From: a virus
Lineage: Duplodnaviria; Heunggongvirae; Uroviricota; Caudoviricetes
Strand: one strand, 5' to 3'
Length of the DNA: 39,436 bases
IMG/VR virus record: IMGVR_UViG_2537561944_000032
Made by a program: the position numbers and the translations under genes. Under the pieces are notes generated by a model. The model ran no database searches. It saw only the letters and a list, made by a program, of their open reading frames with translations, and was not told the DNA's origin. Numbering within the stretch: the stretch's first letter is position 1; each line of letters begins with the position of its first letter. This document shows, one piece after another, positions 2,890 to 39,436 of the stretch.

Positions 2890-4029
2890 TCAGCTGCAAA
2901 TTTCGTTGTTGCTGCATGTTATCTCTTCAAGTGCAGCGGCGTTATAATCAACGGAATGATCAACCTGTGATGTAGGTCTGCCAAAAAATTCAACCCCTGA
3001 CATAATCATGTTGCCGATATTCTCTCGCTGTTTATCACTGAGCCTGTCCCACCACTCAGGGGATGAATATGTATTTTCGGCCTTTGTGAAGAAAAAATAC
3101 AGAAGGGTATTGAACATCCTGTTAGCTGGGATCTTAATTAGTGTCCGTATAAAACGTCTGATAATTGTTGAAGTTCTCAGCCAACTGAACACTACATATC
3201 CCTTACCTCCGCAGGAAAAAGCATTGAAACATACTTGTTCCGCCGACACTGTAAGATCGCTCAAATCCTGAATTTTGGTCCCATCGAAATCCCTCTCCGG
3301 TGAAAGAATTGACGAAACTACAATTGGTAAAGGCTCTGCAAAAGTGAAGATAACACTTTCAATTTCTGAAAATTGCCTGCTAAGTAGGATGCGGTCGAGG
3401 CTAGTTTTAAGATTATTTAATTCAATTATTGCTGCATTTAAGCCACTTTGGTGCTGGTCGATTAATTTCTGAATATAATACTGTTCAACTTGTAGCTTTC
3501 CTTTATCGGCATTTTTAGCAAAATCAGAAGATAGCACTCCCCCTTCTTTGGCATAAATTTCTTTAGACAATGAACGAAACATTAAGGCAAAGCACTGCTC
3601 GTCCGTGCCTGTAAATTTTTCGTTCTCTAGGCATGAAAATAAGATTCTGTCATGAACTGCACAAAATCCTGTAAAAGTGGATGCCTGATTGATACCGATC
3701 TTCTCGGGAAGCCATTTTCCGTTGTTTCTCATCAGGCTTGCTAAGTTCATTATCACCCCCATGACGTGATTGCTGGAGTCGGCGATCGCCTTAAGGCTAC
3801 TGCTCTTAGATATCGTATGCGCCTGAACGATGCGTTTATCACAATCTTCGTGCATGGATGCTGGCGCATAACATGCCTTTCTCTGCGAGAGAGACTTTGA
3901 AAATTTCAGTGCCTCGGCTTTGGATACCGGAGTTTCACGATCTCGACCAAGATGGCACTTTTTATACTTAAGTCCTGAATTACACCAGCACTTATCATTT
4001 CTTCCTAATTTCACTTTATTGTTTCCCAC
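2890..4029 (-). CDS. hypothetical protein with N-terminal SEC-C metal-binding motif (379 aa), cargo gene in AT-rich island
   Basis: ORF begins ...GRNDKCWCNSGLKYKKCH (CxC-x8-CH SEC-C motif); remainder has no family I recognise; region is markedly AT-rich relative to flanking phage genes; inserted between D and ogr, which are adjacent in P2. Start codon uncertain (GTG at 4029 or downstream GTG). Confidence 0.6.
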   Translation of the reverse strand: MGNNKVKLGRNDKCWCNSGLKYKKCHLGRDRETPVSKAEALKFSKSLSQRKACYAPASMHEDCDKRIVQAHTISKSSSLKAIADSSNHVMGVIMNLASLMRNNGKWLPEKIGINQASTFTGFCAVHDRILFSCLENEKFTGTDEQCFALMFRSLSKEIYAKEGGVLSSDFAKNADKGKLQVEQYYIQKLIDQHQSGLNAAIIELNNLKTSLDRILLSRQFSEIESVIFTFAEPLPIVVSSILSPERDFDGTKIQDLSDLTVSAEQVCFNAFSCGGKGYVVFSWLRTSTIIRRFIRTLIKIPANRMFNTLLYFFFTKAENTYSSPEWWDRLSDKQRENIGNMIMSGVEFFGRPTSQVDHSVDYNAAALEEITCSNNEICS

Positions 4030-29171: not shown

Positions 29172-29543
29172 ACTCTCCAGCTCCTGTATCAATCAGATAA
29201 TTTCACGACGCTTTTCTGCTTATTGTCATCATCGGCGGTCAGACTCTTACGCAATCCCACCGCGTTGACTGCATGTTCTCGCCGCCTCAGTGCGATTTTG
29301 ACGGCCTTATCTGCCACCCATCAAATCAAAAGCCCTCACGTCTTTTTCACGCTCAGCGTGAGAAATACAGCCATTCTGTTGTGTCGCTGCGACATCGTTC
29401 AGGGGATGCTATTTACCCCCTGAAACGCGGGCTGTTCCCCCGTCACCTGCGCGCAGAAAAAGCGCGTTTTTTTGTGCACGCACGGATCCTTGACGGATCC
29501 AGCCGCCATGCGGGCCGGAAGGGTAAAAAGTCGTTCAAAAAAA

Positions 29544-29570
29544 TTGTGCAAACTTGTGCACTATTGTGCA
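29544..29570. repeat. three tandem TTGTGCA iterons at exact 10-bp phasing
   Basis: aaaTTGTGCAaacTTGTGCActaTTGTGCA; lies in the non-coding region between Q and the Ea22-like gene, where the P2 cos site would be expected. Confidence 0.6.
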
Positions 29571-29609
29571 GCAGGGCGATGCGCGATTATCGCCCTGGTT
29601 TGAGGGGGA

Positions 29610-30200
29610 TCAGGTGTTATTTTTATCTGTCGTCAGTGGGCTAAACCATCCACGATTTACATCGCAGGACTGATGCGTTCTGTCCTCGTGTTTCTCCTGC
29701 CACAATGCTTTTCCGCCAGCCTTTATGATGGCTCTTTCAACATCCCGCTCGTATCGCAAGGGCTGAAATACGTCATTAATGAAATATTCGCTTATGTCCG
29801 GAAGCGATACTGCAAAATTATTTGTTTGTTGCGCCGTCCTGCTATGCAGCAAAGCGGCATACTTTAATGCGTCCTGTGCTTTCTGGAATTTAAGTGCATA
29901 GTCAGTGGCGATTTTTTCCAGTTCAGCGATTCGGTTGTCTTTGGTTTCCAGCCAATCAAGTAGCGCCAATACTTCAGGATCCCCGACATCCAACACTGTT
30001 ACGCGTGATTTTTCATAATGTTCGTCGGCAAGAGTTCGGCCAATTTTGAAATCTCCATCATCACCATAACCGGAGCAGGCATAAACAACCTGTGCTCCAG
30101 ATATTCGCTGAATTGACATTTCCTCGCCGCAAATAGGGCATTTCGGTACTGGCACAGGTGAATAACGTTCACGTAATGCCTGATAGTTGATTTCGCTCAT
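29610..30200 (-). CDS. hypothetical protein, Ead/Ea22-like N-terminus with CxxC...C zinc-ribbon-like motif (196 aa)
   Basis: Starts MSEINYQALRERYS...KCPICGEEMSIQRISGAQVVYACSG; AAGGAG RBS; last gene of the parM-parR-containing unit. Confidence 0.55.
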   Translation of the reverse strand: MSEINYQALRERYSPVPVPKCPICGEEMSIQRISGAQVVYACSGYGDDGDFKIGRTLADEHYEKSRVTVLDVGDPEVLALLDWLETKDNRIAELEKIATDYALKFQKAQDALKYAALLHSRTAQQTNNFAVSLPDISEYFINDVFQPLRYERDVERAIIKAGGKALWQEKHEDRTHQSCDVNRGWFSPLTTDKNNT

Positions 30201-30263: not shown

Positions 30264-30575
30264 TTATTCAGGAAATAACGCCCGGATATTTCCGGCCATC
30301 TGACTGGTTATCTGTGCGGTTGATACTGGCTGTGATGCGGGGCGTTCTGTCCTGGTTTGTGTCACTGATAACGCTTCATCACCAGCCCATGCAGCCAGTC
30401 GATAAGCCTCTGCCGGATTCATTTTCAGAAGTGCCAGCCCGGCCAGAAAAGCCACGCGTTGGCCGCTTTTGCGGGCTTCTGGTGTAAGGCTGTCCAGCCA
30501 GGCGCATGCTTCTCCTTCGTTCTTGACGGCGGTGGGCTTCAGATAGAAACTTATCCGTCTGGTTGGAGTCGTCAT
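30264..30575 (-). CDS. ParR/StbB-like centromere-binding adaptor (ribbon-helix-helix type)
   Basis: 103 aa from ATG 30575 (AAGGAG RBS, 2 nt after parM-like stop). RRISFYLKP...LDSLTPEARKSGQRVAFLAGLALL and C-terminal IRALFPE resemble plasmid R1 ParR as I recall it. Confidence 0.65.
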   Translation of the reverse strand: MTTPTRRISFYLKPTAVKNEGEACAWLDSLTPEARKSGQRVAFLAGLALLKMNPAEAYRLAAWAGDEALSVTQTRTERPASQPVSTAQITSQMAGNIRALFPE

Positions 30576-30579
30576 TGGT

Positions 30580-31539
30580 TTACTCCTTGTCCATTGCGTA
30601 CAGCCCATTAACCAGAGCAAACTGTGGCACCCCGTCCGCGATGAAAGTCGCATTAACTCCGCAGGCTTCGCGGATAGCGGGTGCCACAATCTCCGCCCCT
30701 CCACCGACAACCATCACCCGCCCGTAACCCGAAAAACCCGCCAGCGCGCGGATCACGCGTTGTTTCAGTGTTTCTTCCTTTTCACGAATAACCGCCATCA
30801 GGCTGGCGTAATGCGCGTCATTGTGGATGTGCTGGCGCAGCCAGGCTTCATCATGGCGATGTTCGATAATGGTATTGGCGATGTGGTGACTGGTGCGCAT
30901 ACCGTTAGTGGCCATCACCGACAGTACGGCATCGGCCATCAGAGAAACGCCCACGTGTGGATCGCAAAACACCTGGCTGATACCTGCCAGTTGCCCCTGA
31001 ACCTTTGCCACATCCAGAGTGGTTCCGCCCAAATCCACAATCAGCAGGGATTCAAACGGACTCATGTCAGCCAGTGCCTTAAAGCCAGCCGGAATGGATT
31101 CAGGCATAACCCGTACGTTACGGATAGTGAATGCTTCGCCGTTCTGGTACTCCACCGGGCGCATGACGTTCGCTTTTTTGCGGTTGATGTTGGCCATGTC
31201 CGGCTGTGCGTTTGTATCGAAATACTCGCTCAGTGGCAGGGTGACAACCACATCCACTTCCTGTGGTGTGATGCCTGATTTGACCAGCGCGTGATGAATG
31301 GCAATTATATTCACATCGCTGTACTGGTATTGCGTGTCGGTCGTCTGGACAAAGCGATCGCTGACCGGATCAAAACCATAGCGCACGCCATCAAGCATGT
31401 AGTTCGCGGGCTGCGTGCCACCGAACGGCGCAGACCATTCCGACTTGAAGCTGTTCGGGCTGATGGCGTTGCGGCGTTCGCCGTTCTCAGTCCATGCCAG
31501 CTTGATGTTGGTGGAGCCGTCGTCGATACAAATTTTCAT
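30580..31539 (-). CDS. ParM/StbA-like actin-family ATPase
   Basis: N-terminus MKICIDDGSTNIKLAW...ISPNSFKSEW...QYSDVNIIAIHHALVKSG closely parallels plasmid R1 ParM (FIDDGSTNIKLQW...ISPNSFKREW...QYSDVNVVAVHHALL) as I recall it; also the adjacent-Gly phosphate-binding loop DLGGTT. Confidence 0.8.
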   Translation of the reverse strand: MKICIDDGSTNIKLAWTENGERRNAISPNSFKSEWSAPFGGTQPANYMLDGVRYGFDPVSDRFVQTTDTQYQYSDVNIIAIHHALVKSGITPQEVDVVVTLPLSEYFDTNAQPDMANINRKKANVMRPVEYQNGEAFTIRNVRVMPESIPAGFKALADMSPFESLLIVDLGGTTLDVAKVQGQLAGISQVFCDPHVGVSLMADAVLSVMATNGMRTSHHIANTIIEHRHDEAWLRQHIHNDAHYASLMAVIREKEETLKQRVIRALAGFSGYGRVMVVGGGAEIVAPAIREACGVNATFIADGVPQFALVNGLYAMDKE

Positions 31540-36479: not shown

Positions 36480-36683
36480 TTAGCTGTTAGCCAAAGCGTC
36501 TTTTAACATCGCCACAAGGTTTACTTCAGGCTTTTCCATTTTGGCGCGTTTGGGGCGGATAATAATTCGACCGTCAGCCAACATCTTTTTGCATGTATTA
36601 AGAGGGATACCTGTTATCTCTGCATATTTCTGCAGGGATACATAGGGGGCATTCACATTGATATTGATGGTTATACCTGACAT
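36480..36683 (-). CDS. small HTH DNA-binding protein, excisionase/Cox/AlpA-like (67 aa)
   Basis: AGGAGG RBS; YVSLQKYAEITGIPLNTCKKMLADGRI resembles the helix-turn-helix of Xis/AlpA-type proteins; second gene of the early rightward-type operon. Confidence 0.5.
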   Translation of the reverse strand: MSGITININVNAPYVSLQKYAEITGIPLNTCKKMLADGRIIIRPKRAKMEKPEVNLVAMLKDALANS

Positions 36684-36699: not shown

Positions 36700-36906
36700 T
36701 CAGGAAGATTTGTTTTGTTCTTTCTGGGTTAGCTCTAGGCCGCGAAGGAAGATCATGCGCGCCATGTTAGAGGATGAGCGTTGTTCTTTAGCTGCCATTT
36801 CATCAATGACGGCTCGCTCCTCGAGGGACAGCCGAAGTGCCAGTCTTGGACCTGTGGCGGTGTTACGCGGAATGCGTGATCTGGTATCGTGAAGAACTTG
36901 TTTCAT
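36700..36906 (-). CDS. ribbon-helix-helix-like small regulator, first gene of early lytic operon (Cro/Apl-like role)
   Basis: 68 aa; RLALRLSLEERAVIDEMAAKEQRSSSNMARMI fits a beta-strand plus two-helix RHH pattern; divergent from the CI-like repressor gene. Confidence 0.5.
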   Translation of the reverse strand: MKQVLHDTRSRIPRNTATGPRLALRLSLEERAVIDEMAAKEQRSSSNMARMIFLRGLELTQKEQNKSS

Positions 36907-36981
36907 AGTGGTATATTGTGATCATCTAATAGCTCGTGAAATCATTTTGGTATCAAAAAAGATACCTGTCAAGGTTTTTGT
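36907..36981. promoter_or_regulatory. divergent promoter/operator region between CI-like repressor and early operon, with palindrome GGTATC-A6-GATACC
   Basis: 75-bp AT-rich spacer between divergent starts; perfect inverted repeat GGTATCaaaaaaGATACC at 36949-36966 and a TGATCA palindrome at 36919-36924. Confidence 0.5.
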
Positions 36982-37386
36982 ATGAAAAATGATATTGGTC
37001 AGCGGTTGCGTGAGGAAAGGGAAAGATTGGGACTTAGTCAAGTTGCCATGAGCGACATTGGTGGAGTCAAAAAGCTAACTCAGCTTAGATATGAGAAAGG
37101 AGATAGCTTTCCTGATGCTGCGTATTTGGCAGCGCTGTCTCGTTTTGGCCTTGATGTTCAGTATGTTGTGTTGGGAATTCACTCACCTGAAACTTATAAC
37201 GATGATGAGCAGGAGTTGATTACTCGCTTTCGAGCAGCTTCGTTAGATGTGAAAAACGCGGTGATCGGGGCTTTAAAAGGTGCGATCAGTGAAAAGGAAA
37301 CTCAGCCATCAGGACGTGAGTTAAATATTTCTGGTGGTAATAACCGTATCGCTGGTCGTGACTATAACGAAACTAAGGGTAGGTGA
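36982..37386 (+). CDS. CI-like repressor, XRE-family helix-turn-helix (134 aa)
   Basis: N-terminal HTH (QRLREERERLGLSQVAMSDIGGVKKLTQLRYEKGDSFPDAAYLAALSRFGLDVQYVVLG); divergent from early operon and on the same strand as int, like P2 C / 186 cI. Confidence 0.75.
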   Translation: MKNDIGQRLREERERLGLSQVAMSDIGGVKKLTQLRYEKGDSFPDAAYLAALSRFGLDVQYVVLGIHSPETYNDDEQELITRFRAASLDVKNAVIGALKGAISEKETQPSGRELNISGGNNRIAGRDYNETKGR

Positions 37387-37401
37387 TAGTAGGGAGGTGA
37401 C

Positions 37402-38052
37402 ATGGCCGTCAACTCAAACGGTTCAAACAATCGCGTTGCTGGGCGTGATTTTCACGAAAAGAATATTCAGATAGAGCGATATGATGGTTCTCATACCGTC
37501 AATATCGCAATCCCTTCGAATAATGATGATGACGATCGCCCTTTGCTTAAGGCTCAGCGTAAGGAGCTAAATAGCTTGGTTGCTGCTATTGCAGAAGCTA
37601 GCAATACTGAAGCGTTTATTATTTGGCAAAAAGTACATGCGGAGATTGGTGTAGCTGGTATTGATGATATGACAGTAAATCAATATAAAACAGCGGAGAG
37701 TTTTCTGCATGCAATGCTTGAGCGATGTAAAGATCATGATGCCTGTAAGACTCTTGTAAGTTTATTACTACGTAACAGTGAAGACTGTGGACTTCGACAA
37801 AAACTTCTGCGGTATTGCCATATCAATTTCGGTACAGGACGTTTAAACGATCTTACTCGTTCTCAGTTACAGTCTGCATTGTCGTGGTTAGAGCAACAAT
37901 CGGCATCAAGTCACACAGAGAGTTCGGCCTTACCAGAAGTTCGACTTCGTGCTTCAGAATTAATCCGACTTTATCCAAAAGAAATAATATTCTTTATCTG
38001 CGTAGGGGTTTTGGTAGGCGGTGCCATTTCTAGGGTGTTTTTTAATTTGTAA
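37402..38052 (+). CDS. hypothetical protein with C-terminal transmembrane anchor (216 aa); lysogeny-operon cargo
   Basis: In the same frame as the repressor ORF, separated by TGA-TAG-TAG and a GGGAGGTGA RBS; N-terminus repeats the repressor C-terminal motif (SNNRVAGRDFHE versus GNNRIAGRDYNE); C-terminal hydrophobic helix IIFFICVGVLVGGAISRVFF. Confidence 0.55.
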   Translation: MAVNSNGSNNRVAGRDFHEKNIQIERYDGSHTVNIAIPSNNDDDDRPLLKAQRKELNSLVAAIAEASNTEAFIIWQKVHAEIGVAGIDDMTVNQYKTAESFLHAMLERCKDHDACKTLVSLLLRNSEDCGLRQKLLRYCHINFGTGRLNDLTRSQLQSALSWLEQQSASSHTESSALPEVRLRASELIRLYPKEIIFFICVGVLVGGAISRVFFNL

Positions 38053-38081
38053 TCTTACTTGAGCTAAATTGAGGTAATGAT

Positions 38082-38429
38082 ATGAAAGTAAAAAAGGTTC
38101 AACTATTAGTTACTTTTTTATCTATGTTTTCTTTTTCCGCCGTCGCAATGCCTTTTAAAACTATTGAACGTGAGAGTTTCAATGGGGTATGGCCATTTAA
38201 TACTGATGAGGTTCAATTACAGTGTCTTGATGGTAATCCTTATGTGATGAATTTTGACGATAATAAGTTATATGCGCTTACAGGTTTAGCTCGAATAAAA
38301 GGTAAAACATTTGGTGCGTTACCGTTAGATAACAATAATCCATTTTGGCTAGATAATGATGCCGCCCCAGGGTTAAAAAAGAGTCTGGGGGATGTCACTA
38401 AGGCTGCATTTGATTTATGTGATAAGTAA
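38082..38429 (+). CDS. small secreted/periplasmic protein (signal peptide; possibly DUF2511/YebY-like), 115 aa
   Basis: Classical signal peptide MKVKKVQLLVTFLSMFSFSAVA; two Cys (possible disulfide); located between repressor module and int. Confidence 0.55.
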   Translation: MKVKKVQLLVTFLSMFSFSAVAMPFKTIERESFNGVWPFNTDEVQLQCLDGNPYVMNFDDNKLYALTGLARIKGKTFGALPLDNNNPFWLDNDAAPGLKKSLGDVTKAAFDLCDK

Positions 38430-38434
38430 CTAAA

Positions 38435-39436
38435 ATGTCGGTTCGTAAGATTCCATCAGGTAAATGGCTTTGCGAATGTTATCCCTACGGGGCATCGGGA
38501 AAACGCATTCGTAAACAGTTTGCGACAAAAAGTGAGGCGCTCTCTTATGAGCGCCGTTTAATGAATAGTAGAGTTGGAGACGAGTTTCAAGATGGTTCTG
38601 GTCCTCGTCTTTCTGAGTTGATTGCTCGTTGGTTTGAGATGTACGGTAAAACCTTGTCCTCTGGTGCAGAGCGCAAAGTCAAACTTGAGGCGATTTGTTC
38701 CAGGCTGGGGGATCCATTTGCTTCTCAGTTTGACAAAAATATGTTTGCTACTTATCGGGAAAGAAGGCTATCAGGAGAATGGAATCCCAAGGGGAAGAAA
38801 AAACTTAGTGAAGCAACCGTTAATCGCGAGCAGTCATATCTACATGCTGTTTTTGCCGAACTGAAGCGCCTTGGGGAGTGGTCTGGTGAAAACCCCCTGA
38901 CTGGTATTCGCAAGTTTCGTGAGGAAGAAAAGGAACTGGCGTTTCTGTATGTAGATGAGATTGAACGCCTTCTGATTGCGTGTGATGAGTCACGGAATAA
39001 AGATTTGGGGGTTGTTGTCCGTATTGGGCTTGCGACTGGTGCTCGGTGGAGTGAAGCTGAAGGATTAAAGCAATCTCAAGTACTGCCCGGTCGAATCACA
39101 TTTGTTAAAACTAAAGGAAAGAAGAACCGCACTGTACCGATTTCACCTCAATTGCAGGCTATGCTTCCTCAAAAACGAGGAGCGCTATTTTCACCATGTT
39201 ATGAGGCTTTTGACGCTGCAATTAAGAGAGCGAAGATCGAGCTTCCTGATGGGCAATTAACTCATGTGCTACGTCACACGTTTGCCAGTCATTTTATGAT
39301 GCGGGGCGGAAATATTCTTGTGTTGCAAAAAATACTGGGGCATAGCGATATAAAAATGACTATGCGTTATGCGCATTTTGCTCCAGGTCATTTAGAGGCT
39401 GCTGTTGAATTGAACCCTTTTGACAATAGAGGGTAA
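38435..39436 (+). CDS. int: tyrosine-type site-specific integrase (P2 Int-like), 333 aa
   Basis: C-terminal catalytic region with R...HVLRHTFAS...MRYAHF (R-H-R-Y signature); ORF ends at the last base of the window, so the adjacent att site is not visible. Confidence 0.9.
   Translation: MSVRKIPSGKWLCECYPYGASGKRIRKQFATKSEALSYERRLMNSRVGDEFQDGSGPRLSELIARWFEMYGKTLSSGAERKVKLEAICSRLGDPFASQFDKNMFATYRERRLSGEWNPKGKKKLSEATVNREQSYLHAVFAELKRLGEWSGENPLTGIRKFREEEKELAFLYVDEIERLLIACDESRNKDLGVVVRIGLATGARWSEAEGLKQSQVLPGRITFVKTKGKKNRTVPISPQLQAMLPQKRGALFSPCYEAFDAAIKRAKIELPDGQLTHVLRHTFASHFMMRGGNILVLQKILGHSDIKMTMRYAHFAPGHLEAAVELNPFDNRG

Follow-up and report, generated by a model that had tools for sequence, protein, structure and literature searches.

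The antirepressors Tum of phage 186, Ant of P22 and Qtip of VP882 inactivate or aggregate phage repressors, and they are soluble proteins that are produced from separately controlled promoters and do not mimic the sequence of the repressor. In amyloid-signalling pairs, a motif at the C-terminus of the product of one gene recurs at the N-terminus of the product of the adjacent gene (bioRxiv 10.1101/2024.11.07.622273; bioRxiv 10.1101/2020.01.06.895854). In Salmonella and Escherichia coli, the Flk protein (RflH, 'Fluke') inhibits the switch in flagellar secretion specificity; it is cytoplasmic and anchored by its C-terminus (PMC13344023). This work describes a two-gene cassette in a stretch of 39,436 nucleotides of viral DNA (Caudoviricetes; IMG/VR record IMGVR_UViG_2537561944_000032; the whole stretch is referred to as the window), which consists of the gene for an XRE/Cro-CI-type repressor of 134 amino acids (36982..37386, + strand) and the gene for a tail-anchored protein of 216 amino acids, designated ORF216 (37402..38052, + strand). 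The C-terminal tail of the repressor and the N-terminus of ORF216 carry a common peptide motif that co-varies between lineages. A hitherto undescribed physical connection between the lysogeny switch and a membrane protein is suggested by this pattern.

The cassette resembles the antiphage pair Bab/Agp of E. coli (BASS11), the bacterial Bell/NLR pairs BASS1-10 and fungal HET-s/NWD2 in that a terminal motif is carried by the products of adjacent genes and its copies co-vary. Moreover, the motifs are rich in G, N, Q, V and I, some contain RHIM-like phi-Q-phi-G cores, the numbers of repeats on the two proteins are unequal, and one of the partners is directed to the membrane. The proteins concerned are different, as the C-terminal motif is attached to a DNA-binding repressor instead of a pore-forming Bell or HeLo domain, and the N-terminal motif to a small tail-anchored membrane protein instead of an NLR/STAND or TPR sensor; furthermore, the enterobacterial motif is charged and amyloid formation is putative in the present case. 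With Flk, ORF216 shares the homologous Flk_N helical domain and the tail-anchored layout that leaves most of the protein in the cytoplasm, but Flk is a chromosomally encoded protein of about 330-400 amino acids with two Flk_N units and without the N-terminal motif, whereas ORF216 is a prophage product with a single unit and is linked to a repressor. As in lambda cI-rexA-rexB, the genes are located downstream of and co-oriented with the repressor gene, are presumably expressed in the lysogen, and include one with a membrane product, although sequence similarity to the lambda genes is absent and the Rex proteins share no peptide with CI, whereas ORF216 is linked to the tail of its repressor. In a comparison from general knowledge, ORF216 would, like Tum, Ant and Qtip, be a small phage protein that acts on the repressor protein and not on DNA, but it is encoded in the repressor operon and anchored in the membrane. 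Finally, the cultured and sequenced phage BcepMu carries the same cassette with its own motif variant as gp17 (repressor) and gp18 (membrane protein), with the differences that BcepMu is a transposable phage and that gp18 comprises 260 amino acids with additional repeats.

In the window, the motif LNISGGNNRIAGRDYNE in the repressor tail (37321..37371, + strand; residues 114-130, followed by the basic end TKGR) has its counterpart in VNSNGSNNRVAGRDFHE near the start of ORF216 (37408..37458, + strand; residues 3-19). Local alignment of these two peptides yields a score of 62, compared with 20.9 +/- 4.7 for shuffled sequences, and none of 500 shuffles of the ORF216 N-terminus reached the observed value. 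Copies of the motif were searched in all six frames of the window, and just these two were detected. At the DNA level the copies agree at 30 of 51 nucleotides, and different codons specify 6 of the 10 identical residues. The original prediction, which had been made from the nucleotide sequence, had described a motif that is repeated across the two genes, conserved as protein and diverged as DNA, and this description is borne out by the alignment. On the basis of relatives that have a clear second copy (P0124, ..AAGRDFNES..LIGRDIVNISL), NIQIERYDGSHTVNIAIPS (37462..37518, + strand; residues 21-39) is probably a second, degenerate repeat of the motif in ORF216. Modelling with AlphaFold2 (AF2) placed both motifs in segments that are predicted to be disordered, with predicted local distance difference test (pLDDT) values below 50 for residues 107-134 of the repressor, low confidence for residues 1-44 of ORF216, and values of 53-63 in the motif region of the latter.

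The two copies change together from lineage to lineage. The tail and partner sequences are NNRIAGRDYNE and NNRVAGRDFHE in E. coli, FNGDISGQFAGNQIIN and FNGTAQGQFSSRDIIN in Pectobacterium, GEGQIAGGNIY and TAEQIAGRDIY in Gilliamella, and QQFNGPVGTVTSGDVVN and QQFHDRVHQVAAGDIKN in Pseudomonas; further pairs are FHGAVSGGVAARDIINN with FQGNVDGGVAGRDIVNQ (locus L126), QTFHGSVGQSVAGSITN with QDFHGEVGQAAGGDINN (L127), and INGGQFSTGTIHNHYKEK with IHGGQFGNIHNHYEQK (L142; score 81). In BcepMu, the gp17 tail EQVFHGSVGQAVKVEGN corresponds to KQEFNKPVGQAIQAGEAN in gp18, with QVFHGSVGQAV and QEFNKPVGQAI as the aligned part. In gp18 (L213, 1801-2996) the motif that matches gp17 is followed by more repeats, among them SIGSVAGRDIVNVNHG, which resembles the enterobacterial AGRD motif class. 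The specificity of the correspondence was assessed with one representative for each of 8 motif types by evaluation of all 40,320 permutations of tails and partners, and the sum of the cognate scores amounted to 355 versus 227 +/- 28; the cognate sum was reached by 3 of the permutations, and all derangements scored lower. Among 50 non-redundant loci that were included without preselection, repressor tails with a motif type ranked their own partner first in 13 cases and second to fourth in most others, and the partner ranks of helix-turn-helix (HTH) homologues without a motif tail, such as the product of a chromosomal gene upstream of a uvrY-like regulator, were random. This co-variation had not been foreseen in the original prediction, and it points to a direct link between the repressor and its partner. 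The refuting outcome that had been named there, a one-off repeat, is clearly contradicted by the conservation of the motif across lineages.

A metagenome scan that was seeded on the conserved HTH alone added the motif types of L142, L146, L154, L163, L145, L152, L175, L190 and L192, and several of the partners detected in this way were not Flk_N proteins but small Zn-ribbon proteins or membrane proteins with two transmembrane (TM) segments. The matching N-terminus is retained on partners with such other domains, which comprise a Zn-ribbon with two TM segments, small proteins with two TM segments, and a coiled coil with a TM segment; judged from these sequences, the motif is independent of the globular domain of the partner. 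Within individual loci, the two motif copies are 53-67% identical at the DNA level, and 50-70% of the identical residues are encoded by different codons. The low DNA identity and the numerous synonymous differences therefore indicate that the similarity is maintained at the peptide level and not by recent gene conversion, which was rejected as its source on these grounds. Two Gilliamella cassettes (L014 and L125) are 86% identical up to approximately codon 101 of the repressor, diverge throughout the tail, the partner and the third gene, and realign about 1.1 kb later, and this breakpoint implies that the tail is inherited with the downstream gene and not with the HTH domain. Between these cassettes of a single host genus the motif is sharply different, and the HTH and hairpin of the repressor stay conserved.

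The pairing is constant in the sense that 121 of the 125 loci with a Flk_N-like partner carry an upstream repressor tail that matches the partner N-terminus, and the four exceptions are frameshifted, truncated, disrupted or rearranged. On account of this constant pairing with a repressor family, ORF216 is not regarded as an accessory insertion. The original prediction had presented ORF216 and the gene that follows it as two extra genes between repressor and integrase, and had considered that relatives might instead reveal them to be standard conserved lysogeny genes. The latter is what was found for ORF216, which is a standard conserved repressor partner in P2-like and BcepMu-like prophages, and the qualification as an extra gene remains appropriate for the third gene only, which encodes a DUF2511 protein and occupies a variable cargo slot.

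The 1.4-kb region was found in 521 of 5,426 complete E. coli genomes (about 10%), including many O157:H7 strains, and the pair is present in P2-like prophages of Escherichia, Klebsiella, Enterobacter, Erwinia, Mixta and Rosenbergiella. Comparison of homologues showed that the repressor tails of many genera keep the ending ..INVSGxGNRVAGRD[YF]NENKK; in Klebsiella, Rosenbergiella, Mixta, Izhakiella, Enterobacter and Erwinia this ending is accompanied by a partner that begins with M.VNS.G..NR.[AS]GRDF.EN. Besides the P2-like prophages, BcepMu-like transposable prophages of Pectobacterium, Gilliamella and Pseudomonas harbour the pair next to ner-like, transposase, holin and SLT genes, and in these loci the repressor has the equivalent position beside the ner-like and transposase genes. 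Overall, the cassette is widespread in prophages of Klebsiella, Salmonella, Enterobacter, Pectobacterium, Pseudomonas and Burkholderia. In genome contigs, a search with the single ORF216 protein as query yielded no loci and an alignment-based query yielded 6, and a search of viral sequences with P0139 as query gave no match. A close ORF216 homologue was detected in just 1 of 50,697 deposited phage genomes, that of Escherichia phage 520873. In this record (L001; NC_049344, 3982-6024), ORF216 aligns in three pieces without an annotated coding sequence and the integrase is annotated as two fragments, which suggests frameshifts or sequencing errors.

Two other arrangements were encountered in relatives. 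In another P2-like prophage of E. coli (L129, 2857-3632), the repressor homologue lacks the tail and the Flk_N partner is absent; the neighbour of this tail-less repressor is again tail-anchored, and the shared motif was not detected in it. A Salmonella enterica contig (L131, 767-2801) contains three tandem repressor paralogues of 141, 124 and 121 amino acids in front of one Flk_N partner; the tail is complete in the first two paralogues and decayed in the third, and a relic, ..AVGRDYH.., is located in the 135-nt gap that precedes the partner.

The AF2 model of the repressor, which was based on an alignment of 51 sequences, comprises an HTH domain of five helices with pLDDT values above 90 (residues 5-64; 36994-37173) and a helical hairpin (residues 74-105; 37201-37296) in front of the disordered tail. 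The assignment as a repressor is supported by the PHROG annotation 'transcriptional regulator/repressor', by a PDB profile match of the HTH to the N-terminal domain of the P22 C2 repressor (E 1e-6), and by Pfam matches to HTH_31 and HTH_3 that are below the curated cut-offs yet consistent. Across P2-like and BcepMu-like repressors of different genera, the HTH and, within it, the presumed recognition helix (..GGVKKLTQLNYEKGE..) show unusually high conservation while the tails diverge, which raises the question how immunity specificity is set.

ORF216 matches PHROG 5825, a family of 'unknown function', over its full length (E 4e-102), and its AF2 model, obtained with 46 sequences, has a mean pLDDT of 86.9. 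The motif-containing N-terminus is followed by an all-helical, Flk_N-like cytoplasmic domain that was modelled with very high confidence (37537..37920, + strand; residues 46-173) and by a predicted C-terminal transmembrane anchor (37975..38046, + strand; residues 192-215), which is supported by an AF2 helix and by the hydrophobic sequence FFICVGVLVGGAISRVFF. The anchor agrees with the membrane attachment that had been proposed originally, and its C-terminal position implies that most of ORF216 faces the cytoplasm. Residues S5, G7, N10, R11, G14, D16 and E19 are invariant across 20 homologues with 58-78% identity, and G..NR.AGRD[YF].E is retained in relatives with 31-35% identity. The Flk_N domain (PF27202) was assigned via the precomputed annotation of ORF216 homologues, and the NCBIfam model for Flk (NF007987) aligns to residues 37-166 (E 9e-16). 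The 58 bits of the latter alignment are far below the equivalog cut-off of 353, and ORF216, with its 216 residues and one Flk_N unit versus about 333 residues and two units, does not classify as a Flk equivalog. Searches for a solved structural homologue of the Flk_N domain found none, with weak fold matches throughout. Local Pfam matches of ORF216 to zf-P11 and ELYS were below cut-off and were ignored, and neither ORF216 nor the DUF2511 protein matched a defence family in PADLOC.

Taken together, motif-mediated physical coupling of the repressor to its membrane partner is considered the probable explanation of these patterns, albeit by a modest measure of confidence. Two disordered termini face a common compartment, share a lineage-specific peptide and are exchanged jointly, and mutual recognition is the most economical interpretation of this combination. 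The proposed unit is a conserved two-gene immunity cassette, in which a repressor with a disordered, G/N/Q/V/I-rich tail and a basic patch would be followed in the same operon by a membrane partner. The repressor tail and the ORF216 N-terminus would bind directly through a homotypic beta-strand contact of the cross-beta or zipper-like type, and the membrane protein would capture or tether the repressor or nucleate its assembly, or would itself be triggered by the repressor, by which the lysis-lysogeny switch would become coupled to an event at the inner membrane. The comparison of sequences and predicted structures from which this scheme derives is compatible with either direction, in that the partner may control the repressor or the repressor may trigger the partner, and the output may be induction control, immunity buffering or exclusion.

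Several observations weigh against the proposed coupling. The similarity within the Gilliamella L125 pair is not significant when considered individually. In Pseudomonas phage Komp_PAO1_1 (L214, 1633-2778) the repressor tail carries the motif SFHGPVGQAAQGDIKN.. and the product of the downstream gene, a signal-peptide protein, lacks it, and likewise in L193 and L195 a tail is present and the ORF chosen as partner lacks a matching N-terminus. The residues R, D and E of the enterobacterial motif are atypical of an amyloid core, and a co-expressed protein that sequesters the repressor would require an additional layer of control. Moreover, the motif similarity could in principle have arisen by ancient gene conversion that was followed by synonymous drift.

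A specific form of the coupling, amyloid-type signalling, would assign the shared peptide the role of a prion-like templating motif in the style of Bab/Agp (BASS11) or HET-s/NWD2. The motif copies of one protein, once oligomerised, would seed a cross-beta fold and thereby convert the other protein, with the consequence that the repressor is inactivated or aggregated (induction) or the membrane protein is activated (abortive infection or exclusion). This form is possible but rather doubtful. It agrees with the gene logic of the known pairs, in which the motif is located at the C-terminus of the first protein and the N-terminus of the second; with the resemblance of the copies of a pair above those of other pairs, as quantified in the permutation test; with a motif composition of 14.5% G, 11.6% N, 8% Q and 1.7% L with enrichment of V and I; with the RHIM/BASS3-like [VIL]-Q-[IV]-G cores on both sides in L154, L163 and L192; with one repeat on the repressor versus two on the partner, as in NWD2/HET-s; and with the disorder of both motifs in AF2 monomer models. 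However, neither an NLR/STAND sensor nor a Bell/HeLo effector is involved, the partners being an HTH repressor and a Flk_N-like tail-anchored protein, the motif of E. coli is charged, and both proteins are presumably co-expressed constantly in lysogens, so that a trigger would still be needed. If, instead of recognising each other, both peptides bound the same third component, for example a host protease, a chaperone or another phage protein, the partner would act as a decoy or competitor. Similar peptides are able to compete for a single site, the repressor tail ends in a conserved basic patch, and in phage Mu the C-terminus of the repressor controls its degradation by ClpXP. Such mimicry is unlikely, because the sharp change of the motif within one host genus would not be predicted for a conserved host receptor, because the HTH and hairpin of the repressor are conserved while the motif changes, and because the pair is accompanied by no conserved third phage gene, the next gene always being different.

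The original prediction had considered a lysogen-expressed exclusion module similar to lambda rexAB plausible. According to this explanation, ORF216 would belong to an exclusion or abortive-infection module in which the motif similarity is incidental, for example left over from an ancient duplication or gene fission, and it is judged quite improbable. The location behind the repressor in a common gene string without a terminator-like site, the membrane anchorage of one product and the variable cargo of the adjoining slot are in line with it, and an exclusion or abortive-infection role may still apply. The framing is supported in part: the positional resemblance stands, but ORF216 is a conserved partner tied to the repressor tail and not an accessory, and no similarity to RexA, RexB or any PADLOC family was detected; an incidental relic would neither co-vary nor stay under selection at the peptide level, and a fused, ancestor-like protein was not found in two large protein searches. 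Homology to Flk_N, together with the role of Flk as a tail-anchored cytoplasmic inhibitor of the secretion-specificity switch (PMC13344023), could also be explained by a moron that acts on the host flagellar type III export gate and alters the motility of the lysogen without any link to the repressor. With a single Flk_N unit and a score far under the equivalog cut-off, this is very improbable; moreover, chromosomal Flk proteins lack the N-terminal motif, partners with unrelated domains retain it, and the linkage to the repressor tail would be left unexplained. Finally, programmed stop-codon readthrough or a split gene could yield a repressor-ORF216 fusion, since the two reading frames are identical in the window and in frame at 46 of 64 unique junctions. 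The latter junctions derive from few clades, the gap between repressor and partner ranges from -4 to +32 nt in relatives, and the frame is shared in 4 of 16 spacing classes, roughly the proportion expected by chance. As spacing and frame vary in this manner, the arrangement in E. coli, with its shared frame and triple stop, is taken to be lineage-specific and incidental. Each partner has its own start, preceded here by its own GGAGG, and the search for fused proteins that had been suggested in the original prediction detected none among the homologues of either gene. Readthrough or fusion is thus extremely improbable, and it was rejected on the triple stop, the variable spacing and the lack of a fused homologue.

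The junction itself, TGA TAG TAG GGAGG TGAC ATG (37384..37401, + strand), is arranged as had been read from the sequence originally, with the stops TGA (37384-86), TAG (37387-89) and TAG (37390-92), a strong ribosome-binding site GGAGG (37393-97), and a spacer of 4 nt up to the ATG at 37402. The 15-nt gap between repressor and ORF216 fits a single operon with close translational coupling, and a terminator-like site on the + strand was not found between 36982 and 38435, that is, up to the integrase gene.

The window represents a P2-like prophage; at its right end the identity to Escherichia phage 520873 (Peduoviridae, Xuanwuvirus) is 98%. The rightward string on the + strand consists of the repressor, ORF216, the DUF2511 gene and, as last gene, a P2-type tyrosine integrase (38435..39436, + strand; Pfam Int_N and Phage_integrase). 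The DUF2511/YebY-like, presumably secreted protein of 115 amino acids (38082..38429, + strand) has an N-terminus that resembles a signal peptide, in agreement with the earlier description, and matches Pfam DUF2511 with 28.4 bits (cut-off 21) and PHROG 2950 ('unknown function'); its RefSeq name is DUF2511 domain-containing protein. The gene after the partner differs in almost every lineage, with products of 288 amino acids in Klebsiella, 440-459 in Salmonella and 85 in L216, and a lipoprotein-like product of 124 amino acids in Gilliamella. Since the contents of the slot are unrelated across lineages, the DUF2511 gene is, by this comparison, variable cargo between the partner and the integrase, outside the conserved pair.

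On the other side, the repressor diverges from the early lytic operon, which starts 75 nt upstream on the minus strand with an Arc-like ribbon-helix-helix gene (36700-36906, minus; PHROG 3431) and continues with a Cox-like excisionase/repressor gene (36480-36683, minus; PHROG 575), two small early regulators compared with Cox alone in P2. The divergent control region between the two operons (36907..36981) contains a leftward promoter-like site, TTGACA-17-CAAAAT (36972-36944, minus strand), the -35 hexamer of which is adjoined by a perfect inverted repeat, GGTATC-N6-GATACC with spacer AAAAAA (36949-36966), that was read directly from the sequence and may be an operator. Elsewhere in the window, two ORFs on the minus strand (30264-31539) match PHROG 'partition protein' families (phrog_691 and phrog_2515) within this integrating P2-like prophage, and ORFs of 379 amino acids (2890-4029, minus) and 123 amino acids (29273-29644, plus) have no PHROG match at E <=1e-5; the latter two may be cargo genes, or else not real genes.

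The genes themselves are known from thousands of genomes and from the sequenced phage BcepMu, and the shared, co-varying peptide is apparently new. Within a limited coverage of the literature, no paper was found that notes this peptide or that connects amyloid-signalling motifs with phage repressors, and full-text searches on BcepMu gp17/gp18, or on Flk in combination with phage repressors, returned nothing relevant. The pair may have escaped study because a close homologue of ORF216 is present in a single deposited phage genome. To our knowledge, no physiological induction signal has been described for P2-type phages without a LexA-cleavable or Tum-controlled repressor, or for BcepMu-type transposable phages, and a peptide link between repressor and membrane would be a concrete candidate for this missing induction input, or for a defence output that is coupled to the repressor. 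The specificity classes of the motif suggest a second, protein-level layer of 'immunity type' beside operator specificity, and the pair provides a first context for the phage branch of the poorly understood Flk_N domain. If the amyloid form of the coupling were true, it would constitute the first case in which the transcription factor of a lysogeny switch carries an amyloid-type signalling motif, and the coupling would provide an SOS-independent, all-or-none route to induction from the membrane, or an abortive infection system guarded by the repressor. The BASS/HET-s principle would then extend past NLR-effector pairs to the transcriptional switches of common prophages of E. coli, Klebsiella, Salmonella and Burkholderia.

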